Below, one piece after another: positions 1 through 29,029 of a stretch of DNA of 29,031 nucleotides. The DNA is taken from positions 1 to 29,031 of the forward strand of contig CAYYSC010000002.1 in the NCBI GenBank assembly GCA_964474065.1, in the 5' to 3' direction. A program made the translations under genes and the position numbers. The stretch comes from an uncultured Rhodospirillales bacterium (GTDB lineage: Bacteria; Pseudomonadota; Alphaproteobacteria; Bin95). The notes under the pieces are model-generated. The model ran no database searches and had not been told where the DNA came from. It worked only from the letters and a program-made list of their open reading frames with translations. Each line of letters starts with the position of its first letter. The first letter of the stretch is position 1.

Positions 1-468
1 GTGCGCGCCGCGGCGCAGCAGCTTCGCGCCAATGAATATCCTTTTACTTTTCATGGCTTCGTTGAAGGTAACCAGATCACCACAGGTGCCGTCGATGTTG
101 TCGTAACCGATGGTTTTACCGGCAACATTGCGCTGAAAACCGCCGAAGGAACGGCTGAGCTCTACAGCCATTTCCTGCGACAGGCGTTCAAGTCGTCCTG
201 GGCGGCCAAGATCGGATACCTGCTCGCGCAGAAGGCGCTGCGGCAGCTTCGGGCCCGCGTTGACCCGCGGCGGTATAACGGTGCAGTGTTCGCCGGCCTT
301 AACGGCATTGTTGTGAAAAGCCATGGAGGGTCGGATGCCCTCGGTTTTGCGAACGCAGTCGGCGTTGCGGCCGATATGGTGGAGCAAGGCTTCATGGCAG
401 ATATCCGGAAGGAGTGCGAACGGTTGAACTGGAACCACGCCCGGGCCGCGACGGTGACATCTGCGTAG
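1..468 (+). CDS. plsX: Phosphate acyltransferase PlsX, C-terminal part (5' end outside window)
   Basis: Motifs F.GFVEG, DVVVTDGFTGNIALKT.EG, YNGAVFAGLNGIVVKSHG; lies directly upstream of fabH as in the conserved plsX-fabH operon. Confidence 0.96.
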   Translation: MRAAAQQLRANEYPFTFHGFVEGNQITTGAVDVVVTDGFTGNIALKTAEGTAELYSHFLRQAFKSSWAAKIGYLLAQKALRQLRARVDPRRYNGAVFAGLNGIVVKSHGGSDALGFANAVGVAADMVEQGFMADIRKECERLNWNHARAATVTSA

Positions 469-471
469 CCG

Positions 472-1446
472 ATGATGTATCGTTCTTTTGTTGCTGGCTG
501 CGGCGCGTATCTGCCTGAACGCGTCGTCGAAAATGCAGAACTGGCTACGCTGGTCGACACTTCAGACGAGTGGATTGTCGAGCGCACGGGGATCCACCGC
601 CGGCATATTGCAGCGGCCGGTGAGACGACGAGCGATCTGGCCTATGCGGCTGCCCGGGCAGCCTTGCGCAACGCCGATATGACTGTCGACGACATCGACT
701 TGATTGTGCTGGCCACGGCAACGCCGGACAATACCTTTCCCGCCACAGCAACGCAGGTTCAGGCCCGGCTTGGCATGGCCCATGGCGCCGCCTTTGATGT
801 GCAGGCCGTTTGCTCCGGCTTCGTCTTTGCGCTCTCGGTTGCCGACAATTTCATTCGAACTGGTCAGTCGAGAGCGGCGCTGGTGATCGGCGCGGAAACT
901 TTTTCCCGAATCCTGGATTGGCAGGATCGTGCGACCTGCGTCCTGTTCGGCGATGGAGCGGGCGCGGTGGTGCTGCGGCAGTCACCGGGGACGGACAGTG
1001 TTGCGGAGCGGGGAATTTTGTCCACGCACCTCCATTCGGACGGCCGATTTAAAGAGCACTTGTACGTGGATGGCGGCCCGTCTTCGACACAGTCCACCGG
1101 CTACCTTCGGATGGCCGGCAAAGAAGTCTTCCGGCATGCGGTTACGAACTTGGCGAACGTCGTTCGGGAGGCGTTGGATGCCAACAAAATTTCCGCAGAT
1201 CAGATCGACTGGGTCGTTCCGCATCAAGCAAATCAACGGATTCTGGACGCTACCGCGCGAAAATTGAAGATCGATCCGAGCAGGGTGATCAGCACGGTAG
1301 CCAGTCATGCCAACACATCGGCAGCTTCGGTTCCTCTCGCCCTGTCGACAGCAGTGGACGACGGCCGCATTAAACCGGGCGATTTGTTGATTTTGGAAGC
1401 GATGGGCGGTGGTTTTACCTGGGGATCGAGTCTGGTTCGCTGGTAG
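472..1446 (+). CDS. fabH: 3-oxoacyl-ACP synthase III
   Basis: [13 protein letters not shown], catalytic AVCSGF, VVPHQAN and HANTSAAS, C-terminal AMGGGFTWG. Confidence 0.98.
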
Positions 1447-2334: not shown

Positions 2335-2411
2335 CGGAGCGTAGCGCAGCTTGGTAGCGCGCCAGCATGGGGAGCTGGAGGTCGTGGGTTCAAATCCCGC
2401 CGCTCCGACCA
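2335..2411 (+). tRNA. tRNA-Pro, anticodon GGG
   Basis: 77 nt; acceptor CGGAGCG/CGCTCCG, D arm GCGC..GCGC, anticodon stem CCAGC/GCTGG with loop ATGGGGA, T loop TTCAAAT, encoded ACCA end. Confidence 0.97.
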
Positions 2412-2473
2412 GTTAATTCAACCCGCCCATTACCCAAGGGCGGAGACAGTCGCGGCCCGGCTGCGTTACAAAT

Positions 2474-4387
2474 GTGACGAACGGGGCATGTTCAGACCGA
2501 TACGGACCGACTGGTTACTTGCAGCTATCGCATTTAATCTGGCGCAGCGCGACTGTGGCGCATGCTTCTTTCTGGCGGCGCATTCGGCGGAGCATAGCCG
2601 TGATTGCCGTCGGCGCGGCAACGCTTCCGGCAGTGGCTAATCCTCAATCCGAAGCCCCGGAAGTGGAGGGCTTCTCCCCCGTTTCCTACGAAGCCGACCT
2701 GGTCGGCGCTCCTAGCGCAAAAGCCGAGGATTTGCTCAAGGCCAGCCTCAAGGTTTTCCGCTTTCAGGAGGAGGGAGCGCCGAGTATCCCCATGCTCAGG
2801 GGGCGGGCGACGGCCGATGTGGACATCGGCCAGCGGGTGATGCGATCCCTGGGCTATTACGAGGCGACCTTCGAGACCAACGTTGCGGCGCGCGAGGGCC
2901 AGCCGGCGATGGTCACGGTCCGGGTGATGCCCGGCCGGCCCTTTACGCTCGCCAGTCATCGTTTCGATGTTTCGCACGATCTGTTGAGTCCGCCGCCCGA
3001 CCTCACGAGCGCAGAGAAGTTGGGCTCGCCTGTCGGCGCCGCCGCGCGCGCAGAGGCCATTCTGGAGGCTGAAGCCGCGGCGATCCGGCGACTGAAGCGG
3101 CAAGGTTATCCCTACGCCGAACAATCAGAACGGGATGCGGTGATGAATCCGGAAGAGGCCACCCTGGAGGTGAACACGTCCATCGCTGCCGGTCGGCAAT
3201 ACCGTTATGGCGAATTAAGTTTCGATGGGATTCCAGACGTCGAAGAAACCTATCTCCGGACCTATGTTCCCTGGGAAGCCGGCCATTTGGTGGATTTGGA
3301 ACAATTGGCAGCCTATCAAAGAAGGCTGATTGAAACAGGGCTGTTTGCAGCCGGCTCTGTGACATTGCCCGAAGAACCGCCAGATGGGGAAGCGGCTCCG
3401 ATTCAGGCCACAATGGAGCAGAGGCCTTTTCGCACCGTCGCAGCGGGCGCCCGTTACTCCACCGATGTTGGGCCGGGCGTGAAGCTTGAGTTCCAACACC
3501 GAAACCTATTTGGCGCCAACGAGACGTTCAAAGCCGTTGCCGAAACCGGGTTCGAGGAGCAGCGCCTCGACCTGAGCTACATCGAGCCTCAATTCGGGCG
3601 CGCGGGCCAGGACCTGATTGCCGGCGTCTCGCTCCGCAACCTCACCACCGATGCTTTTGATGAAACGGCTGCCACGTTCACCCTGGGACTGGAGCGCGAG
3701 TTGACGCCGAACTTGGTCGTAGGTGCAGGCGGTTTGATCGAGATCACCATTACCGAGTCCGCCGACTCCGAGGGAACGGCGTATCTTGGCGGTTTGCCGG
3801 CATTTGCCGAATACATCTCGACGGACGATCCATTGAACCCGACTGAAGGTTGGGTGGTCCGTGCCAATGCCACGCCGTTTCTGGGGCATTTTGACGAGAA
3901 TTTTGTGCCTTTTCTGAACTTGGAAACCTCTGCTTCCACTTACTTCGCACTGGATGGGGATGCACGCTATGTGCTCGCGGTTCGCGGGAGGGCCGGTTCG
4001 ATCCTTGCGCAGGAGCTCGAAGACGTACCCCCGGGTCGCCGTCTTTATTCCGGGGGCGGAGGCTCTGTCCGGGGGTACGAGGAACGCCACATCGGCCCCC
4101 TGGGAGCGAACGGTGACCCTATCGGTGGCCTTTCGGTGTTGGAAGGAGGGGTGGAATTCCGGGCGCGGGTCTACGGCGATTTTGGCACGGCCGTATTCCT
4201 GGAAGCCGGTTCCGTTGCGGAGGACACAGTGCCGACCTTTGAGGAGGGGGTTCAATATGCCGCGGGCGGAGGCCTGCGATATTTCTCGCCGGTTGGTCCG
4301 ATTCGCGTTGACGTTGGCGTGCCGCTGAATCCGCGGCGTGGTGACGACAATTTCATAGTCTACTTTTCAATCGGGCAGGCATTTTGA
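2474..4387 (+). CDS. tamA: TamA / Omp85-family autotransporter assembly protein (start uncertain; GTG at 2555 also plausible)
   Basis: POTRA-like N-terminal part (MRSLGYY, GYPYA), barrel motifs R.YSGGGGSVRGY and GGGLRYFSPVGPIRVDVG.PLN, C-terminal YFSIGQAF; paired with tamB. Confidence 0.9.
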   Translation: MTNGACSDRYGPTGYLQLSHLIWRSATVAHASFWRRIRRSIAVIAVGAATLPAVANPQSEAPEVEGFSPVSYEADLVGAPSAKAEDLLKASLKVFRFQEEGAPSIPMLRGRATADVDIGQRVMRSLGYYEATFETNVAAREGQPAMVTVRVMPGRPFTLASHRFDVSHDLLSPPPDLTSAEKLGSPVGAAARAEAILEAEAAAIRRLKRQGYPYAEQSERDAVMNPEEATLEVNTSIAAGRQYRYGELSFDGIPDVEETYLRTYVPWEAGHLVDLEQLAAYQRRLIETGLFAAGSVTLPEEPPDGEAAPIQATMEQRPFRTVAAGARYSTDVGPGVKLEFQHRNLFGANETFKAVAETGFEEQRLDLSYIEPQFGRAGQDLIAGVSLRNLTTDAFDETAATFTLGLERELTPNLVVGAGGLIEITITESADSEGTAYLGGLPAFAEYISTDDPLNPTEGWVVRANATPFLGHFDENFVPFLNLETSASTYFALDGDARYVLAVRGRAGSILAQELEDVPPGRRLYSGGGGSVRGYEERHIGPLGANGDPIGGLSVLEGGVEFRARVYGDFGTAVFLEAGSVAEDTVPTFEEGVQYAAGGGLRYFSPVGPIRVDVGVPLNPRRGDDNFIVYFSIGQAF

Positions 4388-7300
4388 AGGCGGCGCTCAT
4401 CCTCGCGTTCAGTGTATGGGTGGCCTCGGTCTCGCCCGCTTTTGCCCAGCTATCCTTGCTGGGGCTTAAGAACAACCTCATCCAGTTTGTGCTCGGCCAG
4501 ATCAGTGTGCCGGGAGAGTTCGAAATCACCGTCGAAAAGGTAGAAGAGCCGGGCGACGGGGCGACCGACCTGGTAGGCGTGAAGGTTGCCGATAGCGAGG
4601 GAGTCTGGCTGACGATCAGACGCGTTTCGCTGAAGTGGCGACCGCTTCGGCTTGTGACGGGCAAAATCCATATCACCGACCTCACCACTACGGAGGTGAG
4701 GGTGCACCGATTGCCGAGACCTGCCGGGCCGGCGGAGGAGCCGCCAGAGGAAGAAGGGGATGGCGAGATTGCTTGGCCGCGATCGCCGATATCGGTCCGC
4801 CTGGACAATCTGGTCTTGAACCAAGTCGAGATTGCGGAGGACGTCATTGATGGGCAAGCCGTGTCATTTGATGCAGCCGGGTCCTTTCGGGACGAAGGGA
4901 ATGTGCAGTCTGCTGCGTTGACGCTGGAACGCACGGACAAGGTAGACGCCACTGTCCAATTGGCCTTTGAGCGGCAGTTCGAGGCGGATCGGTTGCGCTT
5001 CGATCTGAAGGCGGAGGAAGGACCCGGCGGCTTGGTGGCGTCTCTTGCTAACCTGCCGCCCGACGCGGGAGCGAGTGTCAGAATCTTCGGCAGCGGTCCG
5101 ATTGAGGACTGGCAGGCCGACCTGGATGCGCTGGTTGAACAGCGGTTGCAGGCTAACGGAAAGATCGTGGTCCGTTCGGTTCAACCTTTATCCCTGACCA
5201 CTGCCCTGCGTGTTCAGTCTGAAGGCGAGCTTCGCCAAACGATAGAGCCGGTTCTGGGCCCTACGCTCAATCTTGACGCTGACGCGGTGGTCGAGACGGA
5301 AGGATTGATTACGTTACAGCAACTGCAAATCCGCGGGGAAAATGCCGAAGTATCGGCTCAGGGCACCTTCGACACCAATACCCAGGAAATGGACGCCGAG
5401 GCACAGGCCACGATAGTGGCGGTGGGCGAGCCATTCCTCCCCGGCGCGAGGGTCCAGAACATTGGCTTCGAGGGGCGTGTTTCGGGCACTCCGAATTCTC
5501 TGACAGCCGACGGCAGGATCACTCTGGCAGAAGTGGCTGCCGATGCCCTGCAGGCCACCGGCGTGAGCCTGAATGGAGAGGTTGCCGTGGCAGGGGAAAC
5601 GATCCGGTTCGACCTTTCCGGGCAGAGCGAGACCCTGACGGCAGACAAGCTGGACCTTCACCAAGGCGGCGTGCTCCGCTTCGGCGGGGAGGGAGAAATG
5701 GCCGCCGGCGTCCTGACGCTCCAAACCTTTTCCGTTACGTCGCCACTGCTCAGTGTCGAGGCGGACGGCCAAGTTTTTTTGGATGAAGGCCGGCTGGACT
5801 TGCTGTACCGCGCGGACGTGCTGGAACTGACACCGGTTGCGGCGGCCTATGGTGCCGCCGCTGCCGGGACGCTGACGGGCCAAGGCACCGTTGCCGGGCC
5901 GTTTGACGCGCTGGCAGTGTCGGGCGGTCTGTCGTTAGCCGGCCTGTCATGGCAGGAACAGGAAATCGGCAATCTTGAACTGAACCATGATGCCACCATC
6001 GCGGAGACCATTGCCGCAGCCCTGGATCTGACGCTCCGCGATTCTCCTTACGGTCCCGCCATGGTCGCGACGGAATTGGCCCTCGCAGGCAACCAGCTGG
6101 AACTGAGGTCGCTGGAAGCCAGTGCACTCGGCGTCGATGCAGAGAGCATCGAACCGCTTACCGTGGACCTAGATACCATGCTGGCGTCCGGAAAGCTGGA
6201 ATGGCAGGCGCCCGATCTCTCCCAAGCCGGCAACGCCCTGGGCACGCCTTTGCAAGGGAAGGCGAGCGGCAGCGCTGCCCTCGTTCGGGCAAACGGCCAG
6301 CAGGATATAATCCTCGCGGTGAACGGCGCCAACCTGGCGGCGGGCGATGCTCGGGTGCAGCGTGTGACGCTCGATGCGTCCCTGAGCGATGTCCTGGCTG
6401 AGATGCCAAAGGTACAGGCGCGATTACGGGCGACGCAGGTGGCGGCGGGTGGCGCGACCCTTACCGAAACGACAGCCCGCGCCGAGGGGGCGTTATCGTC
6501 CCTGCAGCTAACCCTGCAGACAGAGGGGGAGGCGTCGGATGGTGAGCCTGTGGCGGCGGAGACCGCCATGACGGCCGATCTCTCCGCTGCGCCACAGCGG
6601 ATCACGGTCTCGAAGCTGAGCGCCAACTATGCCGATCAGGAGGCGCGTCTAGCCCAGCCTGCCGTGATCGAGGTGCAAGAATCCGGCACTTTCATCCGGG
6701 ACCTGAATCTCCGGACACTGGGCGGCAGCGTGGCCGGAAACGTGGCCATGCTCCCGGCTTCGCTCCAGGGGGACCTGCAGGTCGATTTTCCAGACCTGGA
6801 GCCACTTGCGCGGTTGGCTGACCTGCCGGTGAGGGAAGGGAGCCTCAACGTGAGCGCCGAGTTCGACACGGCGCAGTCGGCCAACTGGCGGTTCGAGGTC
6901 GCCGGGCTCCGCCTCGCCGAAATCGATAGCGGCGAACGGGAGTTCGCCATCAGCCTGCTGGGAGGCTGGAACGGACGCGAAGTCGGGCTGCAGGCGCAGA
7001 TGGCCGGCGACTTCGGCATGCCAGCGACTGCCGAGATCAGCTTTCCGCTTCGGCCCGGTCCCGGATTGGTTCCCACCCCGGCACCGGGTGCTCCGCTTAA
7101 CGGCTTTGTGCGCTGGTCAGGCGACATCCAGCGGGTTTGGGCGCTCGTGCCCGCTCCCGACCATTATGTCCGAGGCGAGGCGGACGTTGATCTCGATATC
7201 GGCGGAACTATCGCGGAACCGGCTTTGGCCGGCCGGGCAAACGTCAACGATGGCCGGTATGAGTTCCTGGAAACGGGTACCATCCTGACCGATCTCAGGA

Positions 7301-20890: not shown

Positions 20891-21624
20891 GTCCGAGGCG
20901 CCCAGCTGACCGGGTCGCCGGGGGCAAGGCCGAGCACGGCGGCGGCCGATCCTTTGTTCACGGCGATTTCCGCTAGGCCTAACGAGTTTCGATACCAAAA
21001 CGCTTCGCCAGGCGCGGCATCCGAAAAGGTGCTTGCCTGGCGAAACTCTTGTGGACCGGCCCGCAGCCGAAGCCCCACAACCGGGGTCAGACCGGTCATC
21101 AAATTGCCGTATGCGTCCTCATAGATGATAGCGCTCATCTCGTCCGGCCACCCTGAGCCTACAGGCGCGTCGCCGAGCAAGGTCAGCCCCGATAAATTGC
21201 CTTGAGCCAGACGCGCCGCCGTCGGTGCAAACAGGTCCCGGCCGTGAAACGAGGTCGAGAGCGCCTGGGGCTGCCAAGTTATCTCTAACCATTCCGGTTT
21301 GGCCCGGTTGCTGCCGGCAAGGCGCCGGGCGGCGGGAACGAGAAGGCCGTTGTCCGGCCCGACCAGCCAGCGCTCGCCTGCACGGACGGCGATCGGTCGG
21401 CGGGTACTGCCGACGCCGGGATCGACAACGGCGGTTACGACCGCGCCCTCTGGCCAATGGGGAGCGAGCGCAGCCAGCAGATAGGCAGCGGCCTGCGGTT
21501 GAAAGGCGGATGCATCGTGCATCAGATCGATGACCGGCACGCCCGGAGCGGTCTGGGACAGAACCGCATGCATCTGCCCGACATAGGGGCCTCGCCAGCC
21601 GAAATCCGTGAACAACAGGATCAT
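20887..21624 (-). CDS. DUF62-family SAM hydroxide adenosyltransferase (SAM hydrolase; halogenase-related fold)
   Basis: MILLFTDFG...YVG.M..V, VVDPGVGSTRRPI, VGPDNGLL, TSFHGRDLFAP.AA, D.YGNL.T, NSLGLAEIAVN.GSAA; true ATG at 21624 overlaps the GNAT stop. Confidence 0.9.
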   Translation of the reverse strand: MILLFTDFGWRGPYVGQMHAVLSQTAPGVPVIDLMHDASAFQPQAAAYLLAALAPHWPEGAVVTAVVDPGVGSTRRPIAVRAGERWLVGPDNGLLVPAARRLAGSNRAKPEWLEITWQPQALSTSFHGRDLFAPTAARLAQGNLSGLTLLGDAPVGSGWPDEMSAIIYEDAYGNLMTGLTPVVGLRLRAGPQEFRQASTFSDAAPGEAFWYRNSLGLAEIAVNKGSAAAVLGLAPGDPVSWAPRT

Positions 21625-22217
21625 GGCGGCGGTATTACCGGATGGAAGCTGGCGGCTTCCGCCGCGATATCCCCGGAAAGGCGCGGGTCGGCTGCGACCT
21701 CTACTTCCCGTTTGAAGGCGCGAAATCCTTGGCGGAGGTAGAAGGGTAGGGCGCCCGGGTGGTCGAAGGTGCAAGTGTGCAGCCAGAGCCGGCGTGCCCC
21801 GCCATCTTGGAAGGCCAGCCGCTGCGCCTCCCCCATCATCCAGTTGCCGAGGCCCTGGCCGATCGCTTCCCGCACCAGGCCGAAGAACACGATCTCGCAG
21901 TCGGGCGCCTCGCGCCAATCCATCTCCAACAGCCCGATGTCGCGGCCGCGCTCGCGCAGCGCGTGGATGTGCACCTGGGGATGGCGGATGATCGCGGCGA
22001 GTTGCTCATCCGTCATCAGGGTGCGTGTGAACCAAAGCCAATCCTCGCCTACCTCCCGGTAGAGTCCGCGGTACCAATTCAACTCCGGCTGATCGATCCG
22101 CTCCAGCGTCACGCCCGGACGCGGACAAGGCGGGAAGCGCTCCGGCGGTGCGTGCCTTTCCAGGTGGGTGACGATGGACGCGATCGCGCCCGGCGGCAGG
22201 GGCAGGTAGGACGACAT
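21621..22217 (-). CDS. GNAT-family N-acetyltransferase
   Basis: FGLV.EAIGQGLG..MM (acetyl-CoA motif A), RLWLHTCTFDHP.AL.FY...GF. Confidence 0.88.
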   Translation of the reverse strand: MSSYLPLPPGAIASIVTHLERHAPPERFPPCPRPGVTLERIDQPELNWYRGLYREVGEDWLWFTRTLMTDEQLAAIIRHPQVHIHALRERGRDIGLLEMDWREAPDCEIVFFGLVREAIGQGLGNWMMGEAQRLAFQDGGARRLWLHTCTFDHPGALPFYLRQGFRAFKREVEVAADPRLSGDIAAEAASFHPVIPPP

Positions 22218-22226
22218 CTCAGGCTC

Positions 22227-23882
22227 TCATTCCACCCGCCACTCCTCGATCCATAAGGTCGTCGGGGCAAGATGGCCGGTTGGGCGCACGCCCTTCAGCC
22301 AGCGGGGAATCACATACGGGTCGGCGCGGAAATAGAGCGGCAGCGCGGGCAGGTCTTCAGCGTAGATCCGTTGCAGTTCGTGCCAGCGCTCCAGACGGGA
22401 TTCGCGGCTGAGATCGACCTCGATCGCGTCGATCAGCGCGTCCATCACCGGGTTCTTATAGCCCGTGTAGTTCTGGCCGGCCCAATTGTTTGCCTGCGTC
22501 GGGATCATGGAGGAATGGAGAGTGGACCGGGGCACGCTTTCGGGCGCAGAAATCCAGGCAAACATGGCCATGCCGTCGAACCGTCGCTCCCGCACGGTCT
22601 GGCCGAAGAACACGCGGGCCGGCTGGTTCCGGATCTGGATATCCACGCCTATCTGTTTCCAGTAATGCTGCAGCACCTGCTGCACCTGTTCCCGGACCCG
22701 TGCGCCGGCCGTCGTACCGAGCGCCAGCGACAGCTTTGCGCCGTCCGCGTTGACGCGCACCCCACCGGGACCCGGCGTCCAGCCTGCTTCTTCAAGCAGG
22801 GTCTTAGCGCGCTCCGGATCGTAGGAGTAGTGCGGCACGTCTTCCGCGTGCACCCAGTCGAGCGGGCTCACATTGGTGTGCGCAACCGGTTGCTTGCCCC
22901 GGAACAGGCGCTGGCTGACCGCCTCCCGGTCCACGCCGTGGAGCAAGGCTCGGCGCACTCGCGGATCGGCCAGGATCGGATTGTCGAGATTCAGGTCGAT
23001 GTGCTCGTAAATCAGGCCGGCTTTGTAGACGAACTCGAATTCCGCGCTGCGCCGCTCTTCCAGCGACAACGCCTGGTCGAGTGTGAGGCCGAGAGAGCCG
23101 GCGATGTAGTCGAGGGCGCCAGACAGCAGGTTCGCCTCCAGTGCGGCGGTGTTCTCTACGACGCGGATGACAATCCTGTCGAAGTACGGTTCCTCCCCGT
23201 ACCAATGTTCGTTTCGGGCCATTTCCACGAATGCGCCCGGCGAGACCCGGGCAATCCGATACGGACCGAAATAGAGGCCGGGGTTGGCCGTGTCCGTATC
23301 GTAGAGCGTGCGGCGCTTGTATTCGCGCGGGTTTTCCTCAAACCTCGCCCGCTCCAGGTGGGCGGGGAGGGGGGCGACGCCAAAGGCGTTGTAGGTATAG
23401 GTGATCCGGTCCGTATGCAGGATGGCGGTTTTCGGGTCCGGCGTCTCGATCTTCCAGATTCGCTGGTAGACATCCGCACCGGTTACGCCCGATTCGGGAT
23501 GCTTGCCGACTTCCCAGGTGAAGCGGATGTCGTCTGAGGTGACCGGCCTGCCATCCCCCCATGTTGCGCCATCGGCGATGCGGTAGGTAACGGCGACCCC
23601 GTCTTCGCCTTCCGGCGTGGCTTCCCGGACCGCACCGCCGTTCTCCAGCGTCGGCAGCTCCTTGCAGAGCATACAAGCGAGTTGCCAATCATGGTCGTAG
23701 ACCGTGACCGGACGGAGCGCCATGCCGAGCACGTACGACTTGGCCAGCATGGCGTCGATGATCGGGTGAAAGGTGGACGGAAATTGTGTGACGCCGATGG
23801 TAAGCGTTGTCTTCTGCGCCTGAGCCATGCTGCCGGTGGCCGCAAGCATCAGCGCCGCGATCCCAAAAAGAAGCGCACGCAT
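22227..23882 (-). CDS. Peptide/nickel-type (family 5) ABC transporter substrate-binding protein
   Basis: Signal peptide MRALLFGIAALMLAATGSMAQA; WGDGRPVTSDDIRFTW, GPY, D.RVRRAL..G.DR, G.NY.GY.NP..D.L, DLP.LPLY; ATG 23882 overlaps the pyrE TGA. Confidence 0.92.
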   Translation of the reverse strand: MRALLFGIAALMLAATGSMAQAQKTTLTIGVTQFPSTFHPIIDAMLAKSYVLGMALRPVTVYDHDWQLACMLCKELPTLENGGAVREATPEGEDGVAVTYRIADGATWGDGRPVTSDDIRFTWEVGKHPESGVTGADVYQRIWKIETPDPKTAILHTDRITYTYNAFGVAPLPAHLERARFEENPREYKRRTLYDTDTANPGLYFGPYRIARVSPGAFVEMARNEHWYGEEPYFDRIVIRVVENTAALEANLLSGALDYIAGSLGLTLDQALSLEERRSAEFEFVYKAGLIYEHIDLNLDNPILADPRVRRALLHGVDREAVSQRLFRGKQPVAHTNVSPLDWVHAEDVPHYSYDPERAKTLLEEAGWTPGPGGVRVNADGAKLSLALGTTAGARVREQVQQVLQHYWKQIGVDIQIRNQPARVFFGQTVRERRFDGMAMFAWISAPESVPRSTLHSSMIPTQANNWAGQNYTGYKNPVMDALIDAIEVDLSRESRLERWHELQRIYAEDLPALPLYFRADPYVIPRWLKGVRPTGHLAPTTLWIEEWRVE

Positions 23883-24589
23883 CAGGCGTTCCAGTTTTCG
23901 GGATCGTTCAGAAACGCCCGAACGACGGCAGCCTTCTCCGGCGGGAAGTAACCCCGCGTCTCCGCTTCCTCGATCACGTCCCACCAAGTGGCGAGTCCGT
24001 GTAGCGTTACGTCCATCTGGCCGAGCGTGCTGACGCTTTGCGGGAAAATGCCATAGTGGAACAGTACAAGGCAGTCCTCGATCCGGCCGCCCGCCTTACG
24101 GATGGCTTCGATGAAATTGACCTTGCTGCCGCCATCGGTTGCCAGATCTTCCACCAGCAACACACGGGCGCCTTCGGGCATGTGCCCCTCGATCTGCGCC
24201 ATGCGCCCGAAACCTTTCGGATTCTTGCGCACATAGACCATCGGCAGGGCCAAACGCTCGGCGATCCAGGCGGCGAAGGCGATGCCCGCGGTTTCCCCAC
24301 CTGCGATCACGTCGATGGATTCGAGCCCGATATCGCGGCCGATCATCTCCACCGCCAAGTCCATCAGTTTCGCGCGGGCGCGCGGGAAGGAGATCAGCTG
24401 ACGGCAGTCGATATACACGGGGCTGCGCCGCCCGGACGTGAAGGTGAACGGTTCGTCCTCGTAGCAATACGCAGCCTTAATCTCGAGCAGGGCGTAAGCG
24501 GTTGCGCGGGCGGCAACGGCGCGCTCGATTTCGTGGGCTTGCTGAACGCTGATGGTCGTGGTCGGCTTGGCGCCGGCGGCTTGGGACAT
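23882..24589 (-). CDS. pyrE: Orotate phosphoribosyltransferase
   Basis: PFTFTSGRRSPVYIDCR.LIS.P, GGETAGI.F, YVRK.PKGFGR..QIEG, PRPP motif LLVEDLATDGGSK. Confidence 0.93.
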   Translation of the reverse strand: MSQAAGAKPTTTISVQQAHEIERAVAARATAYALLEIKAAYCYEDEPFTFTSGRRSPVYIDCRQLISFPRARAKLMDLAVEMIGRDIGLESIDVIAGGETAGIAFAAWIAERLALPMVYVRKNPKGFGRMAQIEGHMPEGARVLLVEDLATDGGSKVNFIEAIRKAGGRIEDCLVLFHYGIFPQSVSTLGQMDVTLHGLATWWDVIEEAETRGYFPPEKAAVVRAFLNDPENWNA

Positions 24590-24666
24590 GAGCTAAGCGC
24601 TTCTCTGGGGTGAAAGGGAGCATTATGGTGAGGGGATCTTCCGCCGTAGGCACCGATCCCACCCCA

Positions 24667-25449
24667 ATGCTCGCTACCTTAACCCAAATCTTTGGGGACT
24701 TGCAGCCGTCGACCCTGGTCTTTATCGGGCTCGGCGCGTTTTTTTCCGCCATGTTCCACAGCGTCGCCGGATTCGCAGGCGGCCTGATTCTGTCCGTTCT
24801 TCTTGCGCCGGTTATTGGCATCAAGGCCGTGGTCCCGGTGATCGCCGTTTCCCTGCTGGTAAGCCACACGAGCCGTGTCTGGGCCTTCCGCAAAGGCTTC
24901 CGATGGCCAATCTACCGCGATGTGATGACCACCGCCTTTCCCTGCATCATCCTGGGCGCGGCGATTTATGCCTATCTCCCGGTCAACGCGGTGGCGCTGT
25001 TGCTGGGCTTGTTTCTGGTTGGCACCGTGCCGTTGCGGCGGCTGATGAAGCGCTACAACTATCAGGTTGGAAAGCGCTCGCTGATGGGCGTAGGCGTGCC
25101 GTTCGGAGTGTTGAGCGGATCCACCGTGGGCGCTGGAATGATCCTGGCGCCGTTCATGCTGGCAGTCGGATTGGCGGGCGAGGCGCTGATGGGCACCATG
25201 GCCGCCGTAGCGCTGACCGTGAACGTGACCAAGGCGGTAGTGTTCGGTGGCTTTGCCGTGCTGGACAGCGGGTTGGCGCTGGCCGGTTTTCTGGTCGGGC
25301 TTTGTACCGTACCCGGCAACCTCAGTGGCCGCTGGATCGTACGCAACACGCCTATTCGCGTGCATGTTATGGTTGTGGAAAGTGTGGTGATGGCCGGCGG
25401 TCTCTATTTTCTCTACGCGGCGGGTGAAGGATGGAACTGGTGGGGATGA
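24667..25449 (+). CDS. TSUP (TauE/SafE) family membrane transporter; start uncertain (24610 possible)
   Basis: About 8 hydrophobic segments; AGFAGGLILSVLL..V.G.K.VVP and GVLSGSTVGAG..LAPF repeats typical of TSUP. Confidence 0.85.
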   Translation: MLATLTQIFGDLQPSTLVFIGLGAFFSAMFHSVAGFAGGLILSVLLAPVIGIKAVVPVIAVSLLVSHTSRVWAFRKGFRWPIYRDVMTTAFPCIILGAAIYAYLPVNAVALLLGLFLVGTVPLRRLMKRYNYQVGKRSLMGVGVPFGVLSGSTVGAGMILAPFMLAVGLAGEALMGTMAAVALTVNVTKAVVFGGFAVLDSGLALAGFLVGLCTVPGNLSGRWIVRNTPIRVHVMVVESVVMAGGLYFLYAAGEGWNWWG

Positions 25450-25517
25450 CCGCGTCGCTTGGACCGCGTAACTTGGATTGCATCGGCTGGGAACTGAACC
25501 GGAAGACATGGGTAGGC

Positions 25518-25546
25518 TTGACAAAGCGCCGCACTGCGACAATTAT
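25518..25546 (+). promoter_or_regulatory. Putative sigma70 promoter with no long ORF downstream
   Basis: Perfect TTGACA (25518-25523)-N17-AATTAT (25541-25546); predicted start about 25552-25553, exactly where the first helix begins. Confidence 0.6.
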
Positions 25547-25631
25547 GCCAGTGAAGGCATCGTCTGGCTCGGGGTCCAGGAACGCTTCAACCAGACCTAG
25601 CCTTCAGCGCACGCAATCCGGCTTGCGCTGA

Positions 25632-25882
25632 CGGAACCAGGAGGGTGTGTTAAACATGACTCCACCCGGTTACAAGAACCCGCTGCGCTGAACGCGAGAC
25701 ATCGTGCTTGCCCGGGTCGCGCCGATGCATCCGGCGAGGCATTGACCTTGAAATCGGTTCCGCAACCAGGAGGATGCGATTGCGCATGACCCTACCCGAT
25801 TGCCAGAACCTGCCCCGTTGAACAAACGGGGCAGGGCGCAACATGGCCGCGGACGCACATCCTAGCGGAAATTTGCGCCTGA
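25632..25882 (+). repeat. Diverged ~130-nt tandem duplication, each unit with AACCAGGAGG plus an 11-codon ORF
   Basis: AACCAGGAGG at 25635 and 25764; ORFs 25656-25691 and 25786-25821 share 27/36 nt; weaker similarity continues (GATGCATCC 25724 vs GACGCACATCC 25852). Confidence 0.75.
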
Positions 25883-25968
25883 TCCCAAAAACATGCGTAA
25901 TACGGGCTGCCCGCTAATCGGGTAGGCATTGGCTTGCGGAGCACCGCAAGCAGACCGGAACGGTCAAC

Positions 25969-26006
25969 GAAAACCCCGCGCGCCAGAAGGGCCGCGGGGT
26001 TGTTCT
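25969..26006. terminator. Probable bidirectional intrinsic terminator
   Basis: 9-bp stem AACCCCGCG (25972-25980) / CGCGGGGTT (25993-26001); stem ends in a TTTT run on the minus strand (tauD side) and in TTGTTCTT on the plus strand. Confidence 0.65.
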
Positions 26007-26035
26007 TGGGACGAAAAGAGCCGCTAATAAGCCAT

Positions 26036-27112
26036 CTAGACGGCTTCCAGCGGCGCATTCATCATGGTGCCAGAGACAATGATGCCGCCGCGGTCGCCGA
26101 TATCGATCTTCCCGTAGCGTTCCGCATAGACCGGCGGCAGCGGCCGGGCCTCCGGGGCAGCCAGCCATAGGCGCAGCAGGTGGCGCTTTTTCTCAGGCTC
26201 CGGCCAGTCAATGAAGGCGGTGCGGTCATGCAGCAGGGTATGATTGTGCACCCATTGCATGTCGCCCCGCTGGAAGTCCATGTTCAGGTGTAATGCTGGG
26301 TCGTTGGCCAGATCATCGAACAGGTCGAGTGCACTCTTCTGCTTTTCGGTGAGCGGCGGCACGCCTTCCAAACGCCGTGCACTCTCAATGTAACGCCGCG
26401 CGTAAATGGCGGATAGGCGGCCCTCGTAGTAGTTGAACACCGGTATCTCGAAGTATGGGAGCTTGCCTTCCGGGATCTCGCCGCGGCGGTCCGTGGCGAA
26501 AGGCTGGAACAGTTCCCAGAGCAGATCCGGCGCGCGTTTGTACATCTCGTTATAGATGGTCATCGTGCTGACGATCGACGACTTGCCGCCTTCTTTCGCC
26601 GTTTTCAGGCAGAGCAGGGCGACGATATCGCAGCTGTCGGTGTGATAAGTCTGCCGCTCGGTCGTCTGGTAGATCCGGACCTTTGGATCCTCGGTGGAAA
26701 GCCCCAGGTCCTTGACATGGCCCAACACGTGCCCCTTGGCGTTTTGCGAACGCGCATTGCCGAAATAGGTGCCGACGCCGAAATAGGCGATCGCGCTCTC
26801 GCGCATGGAGTAGCGGTCAACCGGCAGGCCGCGCATCAGCGCGAACCCGCGGCCGTTGAGAACGTCGCTGCACAGATCCTTCAGCTTTGGGCCGAGCGTC
26901 GGCAGGGGGAAATCCGCCTGGGTGATCCGGGCGATGTCCGCTTCCCGGGCCACCAGGGGTGCGATGGCTGCATCGATTTCCGCAATGTCGCTTTCGGTGA
27001 GCTGGTAGACCCATTCGTCCGAATTGGCGAGATCTGGCCCGTACCAGGCACTCGGTCCGGCGATCGGCTCCGGCAATTCCGCCGGAATGATATAACTGAG
27101 GCCGTCAGGCAT
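26036..27112 (-). CDS. TauD/TfdA-family Fe(II)/2-oxoglutarate dioxygenase, copy 1
   Basis: Facial triad YHTD...NHTLLHDR, 2-OG arginine in RHLLRLWL; AGGGA RBS; 358 aa. Confidence 0.9.
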   Translation of the reverse strand: MPDGLSYIIPAELPEPIAGPSAWYGPDLANSDEWVYQLTESDIAEIDAAIAPLVAREADIARITQADFPLPTLGPKLKDLCSDVLNGRGFALMRGLPVDRYSMRESAIAYFGVGTYFGNARSQNAKGHVLGHVKDLGLSTEDPKVRIYQTTERQTYHTDSCDIVALLCLKTAKEGGKSSIVSTMTIYNEMYKRAPDLLWELFQPFATDRRGEIPEGKLPYFEIPVFNYYEGRLSAIYARRYIESARRLEGVPPLTEKQKSALDLFDDLANDPALHLNMDFQRGDMQWVHNHTLLHDRTAFIDWPEPEKKRHLLRLWLAAPEARPLPPVYAERYGKIDIGDRGGIIVSGTMMNAPLEAV

Positions 27113-28270: not shown

Positions 28271-29029
28271 CTAAGAGAACCGCCGGATGGCTTCTTTGCT
28301 CAGCGACTGTCGCAGGTCGTCGTATCCCTCCCACGGGTCGTTCTGAAGGTGGGCCAGCCGCTGACCGATGTTTTTGATGGTGTAACACGCTGCGTCCGCA
28401 ATTCCGGAAAGCTCCTCCCAGGAAACCGGCGTCGCTATCGGCGCGCCTTTTCGTGCCCGCGGCGAAAAAGGGGCGATGGCAGTCGAACCGCGCTCGTTAC
28501 GCAGGTAATCAATGAAAATCTTACCGGCGCGCTTTTCTTTGGACGCAGTGGCGATGTAGCGCTCGGGGTTCAATTTCACCATGGTCTTGGCAAGGCCGGA
28601 AGCGAAATCCTTTACATCACCCCACGAGGAGCGCCGTACGATAGGAGTGATGACATGAATGCCCTTGCCGCCCGTTAACATGGCAAAACTCTCTAGCTGG
28701 GCCTCCTCTCTCAGCCTGTCGCGTAAGGCAAAGGCGGTGTCGCGGATCTCGGCGAAGTCGAGTCCCTCATCCGGATCGATGTCGAAGATGAGACGCTCCG
28801 GCCGTTCCGGCTGGTCGGCGCGTGCCGACCAGATGTGCAACTCCAGCGCACCAATTTGTGCCGCCGCCACGAGGCCGGATGCATCGTTCGCCAGAATATA
28901 CGGGGCCTTTGTTCCATCCTTTTCCTCAATCGTGACCGTGGCCAGGGCATCCGGAATGCCCTTGGTGTGGTGCTTTTGAGCACCTCGGTCGACGACGTAG
29001 ATCGTGCCGTTTGGATTAAGGGCCGCAGA
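28271..29029 (-). CDS. ligD: LigD polymerase (AEP primase-polymerase) domain; frame open to the window edge, with a non-LigD peptide upstream of 28978
   Basis: QIGALELHIW, LIFDIDPD (motif I), TGGKGIH (motif II), IFIDYLRN (motif III), PFSPRAR.GAP.ATP.SWEEL, DPW.GY; no stop between 29029 and 28274. Confidence 0.85.
   Translation of the reverse strand, partial: SAALNPNGTIYVVDRGAQKHHTKGIPDALATVTIEEKDGTKAPYILANDASGLVAAAQIGALELHIWSARADQPERPERLIFDIDPDEGLDFAEIRDTAFALRDRLREEAQLESFAMLTGGKGIHVITPIVRRSSWGDVKDFASGLAKTMVKLNPERYIATASKEKRAGKIFIDYLRNERGSTAIAPFSPRARKGAPIATPVSWEELSGIADAACYTIKNIGQRLAHLQNDPWEGYDDLRQSLSKEAIRRFS

Follow-up and report, generated by a model that had tools for sequence, protein, structure and literature searches.

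Do the two look-alike modules in the intergenic region of this Rhodospirillales contig, each consisting of a ribosome-binding site followed by an 11-codon micro-ORF, represent a genuine genetic element, and if so, is it the peptide, the RNA or the act of translation that is under selection? To address this question we analysed a 29,031-nt stretch of DNA of an uncultured Rhodospirillales bacterium (GCA_964474065.1, contig CAYYSC010000002.1, positions 1 to 29,031; hereafter the window). A first-pass annotation had described the two modules as homologous and in tandem, and everything it described was found in the sequence. The sequence AACCAGGAGG occurs at 25635 and 25764, and the two ATGs lie 130 nt apart. 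Both ORFs are 36 nt including the stop and share 27/36 nt: 3 codons are identical, 2 differ synonymously, and 6 non-synonymously. The GGAGG-to-ATG spacers are 11 and 12 nt, and unit 2 has an in-frame TTG 6 nt after GGAGG. The motif CAGGA occurs at 25577, 25638 and 25767. The composite motif GGAGGRTG-N5-11-ATGANYCNNCC occurs only at these two sites in 29 kb (0.00 expected from 100 shuffles), and a profile built from distant, Stellaceae-type relatives hits only these two sites in the window.

The modules are situated in a predicted stand-alone transcription unit of roughly 455 nt on the + strand, within the 586-nt gap between a TauE/SafE exporter gene (+) and two TauD-family dioxygenase genes (-), the gap itself lying between convergent genes. 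The unit has its own conserved promoter and terminator (Table 1), and the RNA is far more structured than its shuffles (z = -4.7). The downstream gene is convergent in the window and in 19 of the 66 loci where it could be called, so the unit is autonomous; in the other 47 of the 66 a same-strand gene lies downstream.

Table 1. Features of the predicted small-RNA unit (positions are those of the window; MFE, minimum-free-energy fold; consensus fold, that of six sequences, with its alignment columns)
Position	Strand	Feature	Support
25518..25546	+	Sigma-70-type promoter: TTGACA, 17-nt spacer, AATTAT; predicted transcription start near 25553	One site found by the scan against 0.2 expected; TTGACA, a 17-nt spacer and an A/T-rich hexamer sit 138-150 nt upstream of ATG1 in all six members of the window's clade
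25553..25629	+	5' domain of two hairpins, about 25553-25605 and 25606-25629	Inverted repeats; both form in the MFE; several compensatory changes in the second hairpin (consensus fold, columns 67-90)
25632..25638	+	5' strand (CGGAACC) of a long-range helix enclosing module 1	Pairs with 25755-25761 in the MFE and in the consensus fold; relatives have GAAACC:GGUUUC where the window has GGAACC:GGUUCC, one compensatory A-U to G-C change
25636..25647	+	Module 1 ribosome-binding core ACCAGGAGGGTG, GGAGG at 25640-25644	Invariant in synteny-derived relatives; profile hit E = 1.5e-8
25656..25691	+	Micro-ORF 1: ATG ACT CCA CCC GGT ... TGA, MTPPGYKNPLR*	ATG ACT CCN CCN G conserved, with changes only at wobble positions in relatives; in 5 of 6 relatives the stop is at codon 9 (TAG or TAA), which the window has lost, reading on to codon 12
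25755..25761	+	3' strand (GGTTCCG) of the long-range helix, 7 nt upstream of SD2; could alternatively pair with SD2	MFE and consensus fold; GGUUUCC invariant in relatives
25765..25776	+	Module 2 ribosome-binding core ACCAGGAGGATG, GGAGG at 25769-25773	Composite motif; profile hit E = 5.7e-3; the GGAGGATG variant also occurs in second modules of other clades and in a further locus, L150
25786..25821	+	Micro-ORF 2: ATG ACC CTA CCC GAT ... TGA, MTLPDCQNLPR*	M-(T/I)-L-P-D conserved in the window's clade, with CTA/CTT and CCC/CCG wobble changes; ORF length 7 to 17 codons
25809..25835	+	11-bp hairpin (arms 25809-25819 and 25825-25835) whose 5' arm and loop carry the stop codon of ORF2	Inverted repeat, 100% complementary; forms in the MFE; conserved with compensatory changes in relatives (consensus fold, columns 283-305)
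25916..25926	+	3' arm of the 11-bp long-range helix pairing with codons 2-6 of ORF2 (25791-25801); specific to the window	Inverted repeat; forms in the MFE; relatives allow only about 5 bp and one of the aligned sequences, L002, has a mismatch; not supported as conserved
25932..25951	+	Hairpin of the 3' domain: GCTTGCGG-AGCA-CCGCAAGC	Positionally conserved with compensatory changes (consensus fold, columns 458-477); forms in the MFE
25972..26007 (around)	+	Terminator hairpin CCCCGCG...CGCGGGG followed by TTGTTCTT; probably bidirectional, also ending the convergent TauD gene	Inverted repeat; conserved in all relatives with T-rich tails; not called by a simple terminator scan because the T-run is short

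Is the element confined to this organism? It belongs to a small-RNA family that is widespread in Rhodospirillales-type soil bacteria: homologues were found in relatives identified by synteny, in Nitrospirillum, Azospirillum, Dongia and Stellaceae, and on at least 120 soil metagenome contigs. Three groups were retrieved without using the motif: five relatives through TauE synteny, all with orthologous tandem copies; Azospirillum plasmids through blastn, which carry ATG AGT CCA CCT (Thr replaced by Ser) and an ORF of 7 codons; and Stellaceae through hydrolase synteny, which carry GGAGGATG...CATGACTCCACCGGGC. In blastn searches against PLSDB plasmids neither the window element nor a Stellaceae-type element found a match, while the Nitrospirillum and Azospirillum queries found only Azospirillum brasilense/argentinense replicons, all unannotated at the site. 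Azospirillum brasilense carries the element on its roughly 650-700-kb replicon, for example at NZ_CP032348 166.8-167.1 kb, and Nitrospirillum amazonense and Dongia are further cultured carriers. Most family members were retrieved with a pattern that fixed the non-wobble bases, so that the large sample cannot itself prove three-base periodicity, and only about 8 independent lineages are unbiased. About nine of the pattern hits (among them the loci L011, L013, L043, L044, L053, L063, L099, L100 and L111) are ordinary genes that happen to start with MTPP or come from unrelated phyla, and were excluded by eye. Tandem two-module versions occur in at least four clades. A possible third degenerate module in the 3' domain of relatives (AAGAGGAG...AUG NCC stop) is not conserved as an ORF and is absent from the window.

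The TauD/TauE neighbours are not conserved. The closest relatives carry the element between a Zn-dependent alcohol dehydrogenase (Zn-ADH) gene and an adenylosuccinate lyase (ADSL) gene, and other clades have other neighbours. More distant TauE loci (61-67% identity) lack the element, so it is not tied to TauE, and a Vineibacter locus with the hydrolase also lacks it. We sought a functional theme among the neighbouring genes and found none: they are generic alpha/beta hydrolases, a ferredoxin reductase, FecR-like proteins and an M48-like peptidase.

Which part of the element is conserved? The family shares AGGAGG(G/A)UG, a spacer of 9-13 nt, AUG-A(C/U)N-C(C/U)N-CCN, a short ORF ending at or in a hairpin, and its own promoter and terminator; the window element fits this description. 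In the synteny set the variable sites in codons 2-4 fall at wobble positions, and across the family the only other changes are Thr to Ser or Ile at codon 2 (Ile in unit 2 of one synteny relative, L028) and Pro to Leu at codon 3. A clade of about 12 distinct sequences keeps the stop at codon 8 while using TAG, TGA and TAA, with codons 6-7 varying freely, and the linker between the AUG and the first hairpin has no indels within a clade. Beyond codon 5, by contrast, the ORF varies in sequence, in length (7 to 23 or more codons) and even in reading frame: sister clades read the same covarying hairpin and pseudoknot in two different frames because of a 1-nt indel (...LPTPWHRQP... against ...VADxRGIGN). 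The first-pass annotation had held that its reading would be refuted by a lack of ribosome occupancy together with start, stop and frame not being conserved in homologues, and on conservation the outcome is mixed: the start codon and, with the substitutions above, codons 2-4 are conserved in every homologue; the stop position is conserved within clades; stop position and frame are not conserved between clades.

The RNA structure is also under constraint. In 45 non-redundant sequences 96% of the cells are paired and 10 pairs show double changes, values that none of 500 shuffles reached; the pseudoknot is 100% paired and one of its pairs covaries. In the predicted ensemble of 117 unique units GGAGG is about 70% paired, almost entirely to nt +2 to +12. 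Two candidate helices are not supported as conserved features. For the 11-bp long-range helix, the window's CUACC:GGUAG could be taken as a compensatory change, but L002 has GGUAG opposite CUUCC and this support fails. An alternative helix between the 5' end and P1 (GUCGUCAAC with GUUGCCGAC) in the Stellaceae-type RNAs is not maintained in divergent members.

The element matches no described family that we examined. In Rfam 15, the window scanned at the gathering score gave only a tRNA, the region 25300-26200 scanned at E<=10 gave only a chance viral hit (E = 7.7), and twenty homologous loci scanned at the gathering score gave no hit. Literature searches for MTPP sORFs, for Azospirillum or Rhodospirillales sRNAs with sORFs, and for EF-P leader peptides in sRNAs found no description of this family, which is therefore apparently undescribed. 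A minus-strand reading as an anti-SD (CCUCCUCCC) sRNA of the 'cuckoo' or alpha-r14 type is not supported either: Rfam is negative on both strands, and the conserved promoter and the T-tails of the terminators are on the + strand.

The explanation that we consider somewhat more likely than not is that of a translated regulatory micro-ORF module, duplicated in tandem here, that gates the fold or stability of a highly structured small RNA. Each copy has AGGAGG(G/A)UG, an 11-13-nt spacer, and an AUG followed by Thr-Pro-Pro codons (Thr-Leu-Pro in copy 2). In this view ribosomes most likely load on the modules and translate the first few codons, the peptides being by-products. Each SD is predicted to pair with codons 2-4 of its own ORF, and the sequence just 5' of SD1 with that just 5' of SD2, so ribosome occupancy of module 1 should open that helix and change the accessibility of module 2, although the helix linking the modules rests on a single compensatory change among six sequences. 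A ribosome reading ORF2 would then have to melt the hairpin that holds its stop codon. Translation status, meaning ribosome availability possibly sharpened by slow Pro-Pro peptide-bond formation, would thus gate the fold, and through it the stability or trans-acting activity, of the 3' part of the RNA. Our computations establish the transcription-unit signals, the conservation of the module, the RNA-level rather than peptide-level conservation downstream of codon 5, and the pairings as predictions; that the ORFs are actually translated, that the two modules act as a relay, and what the output might be are inferred from sequence alone. Translation may moreover be weak, as the SD-AUG spacing is long (12-13 nt in 102 of the 117 unique units) and the SD is predicted to be masked. 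The interpretation of the first-pass annotation is therefore only partly supported: homology of the modules, selection on the ribosome-binding site, start codon, first 4-5 codons and RNA structure rather than on the rest of the peptide, and a translation-driven structural switch as the best available reading all stand, whereas its RiPP or micropeptide precursors, its link to the flanking dioxygenases and exporter, its CsrB-like sponge and, as a family feature, its 11-bp long-range helix do not find support.

Of the alternatives, a purely non-coding structured small RNA remains possible, though less likely. Here GGAGGGUG and CNCCNCC would be the two strands of a conserved hairpin, or a masked C-rich seed pairing with the Shine-Dalgarno regions of target mRNAs, or a protein-binding site, with an incidental AUG and ORFs that are never translated. 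The predicted masking of GGAGG, also seen in the consensus fold, the spacing that is poor for initiation, and the RNA-level conservation beyond codon 5 agree with this view, and C-rich seeds are common in alphaproteobacterial sRNAs. As the C-rich codons 2-4 are complementary to the G-rich SD, an RNA-only reason for their conservation exists and cannot be fully separated from coding. Against it, neither strand of this pairing ever covaries, both being constrained in sequence as expected for an SD and for codons; the central base of CCNCC is never U (0 of 117 units), although U would give the best pairing with GGAGG; the wobble base of codon 2 is not U in 45% of units, which breaks the GGAG:CUCC helix; the AUG and the A at +4 sit in the loop yet are invariant; the stop position is kept while the stop-codon identity changes; and the Thr to Ser and Thr to Ile replacements are conservative at the protein level.

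Only slightly less tenable, but still doubtful, is a sharper version of our preferred explanation, in which the module is a specific sensor of polyproline translation capacity (EF-P activity, prolyl-tRNA supply, or drugs acting at the peptidyl-transferase centre): the ribosome would pause at Pro-Pro-(Gly/Asp/Glu) just as its leading edge reaches the first hairpin or pseudoknot, and the length of the pause would set the fold. Pro-Pro at codons 3-4 is invariant in module 1, and residue 5 is Gly, Asp, Ala or Glu in 81% of the 117 units; PPG, PPD and PPE are reported to be strong EF-P-dependent motifs (Peil 2013, Woolstenhulme 2015). In the Stellaceae-type RNAs the first hairpin starts about 24 nt after the A of AUG, where the mRNA entry channel of a ribosome decoding codons 4-5 would sit. 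Proline-codon leader ORFs such as mgtP and mgtL sense proline or EF-P, and EF-P is needed for transcription-translation coupling at PPX leaders (PMC5021804). However, Thr, Ser or Leu before the prolines is the weakest stalling context, as found for Thr in E. coli reporters (PMC4176338), which argues against a design tuned for strong EF-P-dependent arrest; module 2 has Leu-Pro, not Pro-Pro; all four Pro codons are used, so no single isoacceptor is being sensed; the G at +13 may be conserved for RNA reasons; and no efp, proS or proline-metabolism gene is linked to the element at the loci examined. Were this unlikely but not excluded reading correct, the family would be a new class of ribosome-sensing riboregulator: a four-codon Met-Thr-Pro-Pro start at a fixed distance upstream of a hairpin or pseudoknot would convert the speed of the first peptide bonds, reflecting EF-P or prolyl-tRNA status or inhibition of the peptidyl-transferase centre, into an RNA conformational output, duplicated in tandem in several lineages to sharpen the response, and so form a translation-factor sensor built into a free-standing small RNA that is widespread in Rhodospirillales-type soil bacteria.

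A cis-acting leader-peptide attenuator controlling a downstream gene through the terminator is improbable. In many loci a same-strand gene does start 25-60 nt after the terminator, for example the alpha/beta-hydrolase-Nramp operon in Stellaceae, but in the window, its whole clade and several other clades the next gene is convergent, no antiterminator alternative to the terminator stem is visible in the 45-sequence alignment, and the downstream genes are unrelated between clades. Functional micropeptides or RiPP precursors (possibly hydroxylated by the neighbouring TauD enzymes) and a CsrB-like protein sponge are very unlikely, since, although RiPP precursors as short as the 7-residue MccA exist, TauD dioxygenases and an exporter flank the locus and three CAGGA motifs are present, the peptides are conserved only in residues 1-5 with neither length nor frame maintained, the TauD/TauE neighbourhood is absent in relatives, and only the two GGA motifs embedded in the SDs are conserved, which are predicted to be paired and are far fewer than in Csr/Rsm sponges.

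Among known systems, the closest are the rreB and rreR 'ribosome-regulated expression' small mRNAs of Alphaproteobacteria (Hahn et al., RNA Biol 2017; PMC5711450). These are small mRNAs of about 165 nt that, like the present element, stand alone with their own promoter and terminator and have an unusual conserved ribosome-binding region and a tiny ORF; for rreB translation is weak, and the interaction with the ribosome is thought to control the RNA's own stability, while, as here, genomic context is conserved only within clades. The rre genes, however, are defined by 16-17 contiguous nt of complementarity to the 16S 3' end, the last base belonging to a GTG start codon, whereas here the SD is at most 6-8 nt even allowing a bulge (assuming the canonical 3' end, as the organism's own 16S gene is not in the window), lies 11-13 nt from an ATG, and is followed by Thr-Pro-Pro codons; moreover, the RreB and RreR peptides are conserved over their whole length within a clade, whereas here only residues 1-5 are conserved. 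In the regulatory leader ORFs mgtP/mgtL and mgtQ (PMC8092293) a very short ORF likewise overlaps alternative stem-loops, and what matters is the ribosome's behaviour on the first codons (proline codons, or abortive translation), not the peptide. Translation of mgtQ opens a structure that frees a downstream ribosome-binding site, which resembles the relay proposed here, but those ORFs sit in the 5' leader or an intergenic region of an operon and control a defined downstream gene, whereas the unit in the window has no such downstream gene and ends at its own terminator. Dual-function sRNAs (SgrS/SgrT, RNAIII/hld, SR1/SR1P) are also structured, terminator-ended small RNAs with a ribosome-binding site and a short ORF, but in them the peptide is conserved and functional and the base-pairing seed is known, which is not the case here. 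In the short antibiotic-sensing leader ORFs (cat86 MVKTD..., cmlA MSTSKNAD...) arrest would, as here, be determined by the first 5-8 residues, with Thr or Ala as the penultimate residue, and a hairpin masks a ribosome-binding site; those ORFs lie directly upstream of a resistance gene whose ribosome-binding site they unmask, and no resistance gene is linked to the present element.

If our reading is right, this is a large, unannotated family of small RNAs in abundant soil and plant-associated Alphaproteobacteria (Azospirillum, Nitrospirillum, Dongia, Stellaceae), one that annotation pipelines and Rfam still miss. It would add a second, mechanistically different example to the rreB type of ribosome-regulated small mRNA, and, because cultured hosts exist, it gives a tractable handle on early-elongation and polyproline effects outside enterobacteria. 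Its most conserved part being a ribosome landing site plus four codons, the act of translation rather than the peptide is probably what matters, and the family would be a clean natural test case for how translation of a few codons can act as a signal.

The region reads exactly as the first-pass annotation had described it, namely as two homologous modules in tandem, each with a ribosome-binding site and an 11-codon micro-ORF, and that observation is fully confirmed. The two copies of AACCAGGAGG are followed by ATGs that are 130 nt apart, with GGAGG lying 11 and 12 nt before them, and the two ORFs share 27 of their 36 bases, three codons being identical, two differing synonymously and six non-synonymously. 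The composite motif GGAGGRTG-N5-11-ATGANYCNNCC occurs only at these two places in the 29-kb window, against 0.00 expected from shuffles, and the 11-bp long-range arms and the 11-bp hairpin of the annotation also exist. The element is flanked by a TauE/SafE-family exporter on the + strand and by two TauD-family dioxygenases on the - strand. The coordinates of these and the other features are collected in the table.

Features of the element and its surroundings in the window, and of related loci in other genomes
Sequence	Position	Strand	Feature
Window	2335-2411	+	tRNA-Pro (anticodon GGG), the only tRNA gene in the window
Window	21621-27112		Region compared with the relatives L001, L002 and L005
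Window	24610-25449	+	TauE/SafE-family exporter, mechanical ORF of 279 aa from a GTG start
Window	25448-25475	+	Imperfect 14-nt tandem direct repeat, GACCGCGTCGCTTG / GACCGCGTAACTTG
Window	25518-25546		Sigma-70-type promoter (TTGACA, 17 nt, AATTAT)
Window	25553-26010		Predicted RNA
Window	25632-25638		Long-range helix, strand just 5' of SD1 (CGGAACC)
Window	25635		AACCAGGAGG, first copy
Window	25656		ATG of ORF1 (36 nt, MTPPGYKNPLR*)
Window	25755-25761		Long-range helix, strand 7 nt 5' of SD2 (GGUUCCG)
Window	25764		AACCAGGAGG, second copy
Window	25786		ATG of ORF2 (36 nt, MTLPDCQNLPR*)
Window	25809-25835		Conserved hairpin with the stop of ORF2 at the junction of arm and loop
Window	25916-25926		Arm of the 11-bp long-range helix with codons 2-6 of ORF2
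Window	about 25972-26007		G+C-rich hairpin with a T-rich tail
Window	26036	-	End of the nearer TauD-family dioxygenase gene
Window	28271-28870	-	199-aa ORF matching part of the LigD primase-polymerase domain
L150-L152, L155-L158 (Stellaceae-type genomes)	about 1270-1470 in each		Single-module RNA directly upstream of an alpha/beta-hydrolase-Nramp gene pair
L001, L002, L005, L012, L028 (relatives)	alignment columns 420-492		Conserved 3' domain
L054 (Stellaceae-type member)	about 725-900		Internal partial tandem duplication
L134 (Stellaceae-type member)	about 6106-6260		Internal partial tandem duplication
L149 (Azospirillum brasilense plasmid p4, NZ_CP032348, about 166.8-167.1 kb)	2425-2675		Family member encoding MSPPALT*

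The modules sit in a predicted transcription unit of their own. Since the flanking genes converge, the 586-nt gap between them is neither a 5' leader nor an operon spacer. The promoter is the only sigma-70-type site in the region, the imperfect direct repeat that begins at the TauE stop codon lies upstream of it, and the predicted RNA folds much better than its shuffles (-207.5 kcal/mol, z = -4.7). Searches against Rfam 15 gave no match on either strand, even at E<=10. As for the surrounding genes, all close homologues of the TauE/SafE protein are about 260 aa in length, so that its true start is probably about 19 codons downstream of the mechanical one, while the 199-aa ORF matches only the C-terminal two-thirds of the LigD primase-polymerase domain (profile positions 78-254) and may be a truncated or mis-started non-homologous end-joining (NHEJ) gene. 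The tRNA-Pro gene lies 23 kb from an element whose hallmark is two proline codons, which is probably coincidence.

Homologues were retrieved without using the motif. Contigs encoding close homologues of the TauE protein (75-85% identity) carry the same element, there situated between a Zn-dependent alcohol dehydrogenase (Zn-ADH) gene and a convergent adenylosuccinate lyase (ADSL) gene. Relatives (L001, L002 and L005 were compared) have the gene order GNAT, SBP_bac_5, phosphoribosyltransferase, TauE, Zn-ADH, element, ADSL(-), while the window lacks the ADH gene and has two TauD paralogues in place of ADSL; the locus has therefore been rearranged around the element. An alignment of six distinct members shows conservation of TTGACA, a 17-nt spacer and an A/T-rich hexamer at 138-150 nt before ATG1; of an upstream hairpin with several compensatory changes; of CGAAACCAGGAGGGTG..CATGACTCCNCCNG and of AAGGTTTCCG......GGAGGGTGCGA....GCATGACCCTTCCGGAT; of a hairpin after each ORF; and of a 3' domain and the terminator. 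The 3' domain is strongly conserved among the relatives L001, L002, L005, L012 and L028, as GCACUGGCAGAAGGC..GCCGAGGAAGCCAAGAGGAGCC..GGCAAAUGNCCU, and contains a third SD-like AAGAGGAG and an AUG in a hairpin loop, which in three of the five relatives is followed by a single codon and a stop; the window's 3' domain has diverged from this. In module 1 the variable sites inside codons 2-4 are the wobble bases (CCA/CCG; CCC/CCG/CCT), and in module 2 the changes are CTA/CTT and CCC/CCG, plus one Thr-to-Ile change. ORF1 is 8 codons long in five relatives, ending in TAG or TAA, whereas the window has lost that stop and runs to 11 codons; ORF2 is 7-17 codons long. So the start codon and the first five residues are conserved (MTPP[A/G]; M[T/I]LPD), and the rest of each peptide is not.

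The element belongs to a much larger family. A pattern scan of one genome per species found the module in several Nitrospirillum species, in Dongia sedimenti and Dongiaceae, and in Rhodospirillaceae and other alphaproteobacterial metagenome-assembled genomes (MAGs), a few hits being chance matches, and a scan of metagenome contigs found it on at least 120 contigs. A blastn search with the Nitrospirillum element found copies on the large plasmids or chromids of seven Azospirillum brasilense/argentinense strains, which read ATG AGT CCA CCT GCG CTT ACT TGA (MSPPALT*). This family member, with a TTGACA promoter and a strong terminator, is present and unannotated in all seven records (L149 and six other Azospirillum replicons) and offers a convenient experimental system. 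The largest soil clade belongs to Stellaceae and relatives, judged from the names attached to the linked hydrolase. Retrieving the loci of that hydrolase independently gave the element again in three of four lineages, one of which has a GGAGGATG variant that the pattern could not have found. None of 20 such loci matches Rfam, and literature searches found no description of the family.

Across 117 unique units the spacing from GGAGG to ATG is 12-13 nt in 102 units. Codon 2 is ACN, rarely ATY; codon 3 is CCA, CCG or CCC and never CCT, or CTT/CTA in second-type modules; codon 4 is CCG, CCC or CCT; residue 5 is Gly, Asp, Ala or Glu in 81%; and the ORFs are mostly 7-23 codons long, although a few units run to 60. 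In the Stellaceae-type RNAs the ORF continues through a hairpin (P1) whose loop forms a predicted pseudoknot with a downstream AAGUCCAAG segment, followed by two more hairpins and the terminator. On 45 non-redundant sequences this structure is 96% paired and 10 pairs show changes on both sides; no shuffle out of 500 reached the observed values, and slid controls drop to 35-49% paired. The pseudoknot is 100% paired, and one of its pairs covaries (U-A to G-C). Two sister clades differ by a 1-nt indel before P1 and therefore read the same hairpin as ...QLPTPWHRQP... or as ...VADxRGIGN, which shows that conservation after codon 5 is at the RNA level. Two Stellaceae-type members, L054 and L134, carry internal partial tandem duplications of the module or of the P1/pseudoknot segment, and the locus appears prone to local duplication.

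Conversely, a clade with 7-codon ORFs (MTPPD..) keeps its stop at codon 8 while using TAG, TGA and TAA, and its codons 6-7 vary freely. Together with the invariant AUG, which sits in a predicted loop, and with the conservative Thr-to-Ser and Thr-to-Ile replacements, this is the signature of an ORF that is read but whose product does not matter. The case for translation must however be weighed against several points. Most family members were fetched with a pattern that fixed the non-wobble bases, and only the synteny- and blast-derived sets, about eight lineages, are unbiased for periodicity. The SD-AUG spacing is long, and GGAGG is predicted to be about 70% paired, almost always with nt +2 to +12, that is with codons 2-4; the consensus fold of the window's clade shows the same pairing. 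The C-rich Thr-Pro-Pro codons therefore double as an internal anti-SD, and part of their conservation could be at the RNA level. Against a purely structural reading, neither strand covaries, the base that would give perfect CCUCC:GGAGG pairing is never used (0 of 117), and 45% of the units lack the U needed for GGAG:CUCC.

In the tandem form of the window, the consensus fold of the six members and the window's own minimum-free-energy fold agree on a long-range helix that joins the bases just 5' of SD1 to the bases 7 nt 5' of SD2. Relatives have GAAACC:GGUUUC at this position, so there is one compensatory change. A ribosome on module 1 would have to open this helix, which suggests a relay from module 1 to module 2. 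The 11-bp helix pointed out in the first-pass annotation, between codons 2-6 of ORF2 and a downstream arm, forms in the window's fold, but in relatives only about 5 bp are possible and one relative has a mismatch, and we treat it as specific to the window. Tandem two-module versions also occur in at least three other clades, with 74-128 nt between modules, and in two of those clades only the SD-AUG-MTPP core precedes the full structured RNA. This points to the core module as the functional unit.

In many clades a same-strand gene begins shortly after the terminator. In the Stellaceae-type genomes, for example, the single-module RNA sits directly upstream of an alpha/beta-hydrolase-Nramp (MntH-like) gene pair; the best hit of the hydrolase, far below the family cut-off, is to intracellular PHA depolymerase, and in one lineage a phasin gene lies upstream, which could reflect read-through regulation of a metal or PHB-related operon. 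However, in 19 of 66 loci where the downstream gene could be called, including the window's whole clade, that gene is convergent, the neighbouring genes are unrelated between clades, and no antiterminator is evident. The element is best seen as an autonomous gene, although some read-through into downstream genes is possible in some lineages.

With moderate confidence we favour a translated regulatory micro-ORF module whose ribosome occupancy gates the fold or stability of a small RNA. The RNA-level conservation after codon 5 is shown by the comparison of sequences, while translation of the ORFs, the relay between the modules and the gating itself are inferred. A purely non-coding hairpin or seed RNA is less likely but remains a serious rival. 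A sharper version of the favoured reading, a Pro-Pro pause sensor reporting EF-P or prolyl-tRNA status, is attractive because residue 5 favours Gly, Asp and Glu, and because the first hairpin starts about 24 nt after the AUG, where the leading edge of a ribosome decoding codons 4-5 would be. Yet Thr, Ser or Leu before prolines is the weakest stalling context in E. coli (PMC4176338) and module 2 lacks Pro-Pro, and we consider this version, too, possible but less likely. The interpretation in the first-pass annotation is thus supported only in part, since its proposals of a RiPP precursor, a TauD substrate or a Csr-type sponge are not supported.

Leader ORFs such as mgtP, mgtL and mgtQ work in a similar way but sit upstream of a regulated gene. 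The closest described system is the rreB/rreR class of alphaproteobacterial small mRNAs (PMC5711450), with which the element, on the reading favoured here, shares the logic of a stand-alone small mRNA with a tiny ORF and an unusual ribosome-binding site, whose stability is regulated at the ribosome. The defining feature of that class, 16-17 nt of complementarity to 16S rRNA ending in a GTG start, is not found here, and the sequences are unrelated. We therefore regard the element as belonging to an apparently undescribed family that would follow this same logic with a different ribosome-binding site and start.
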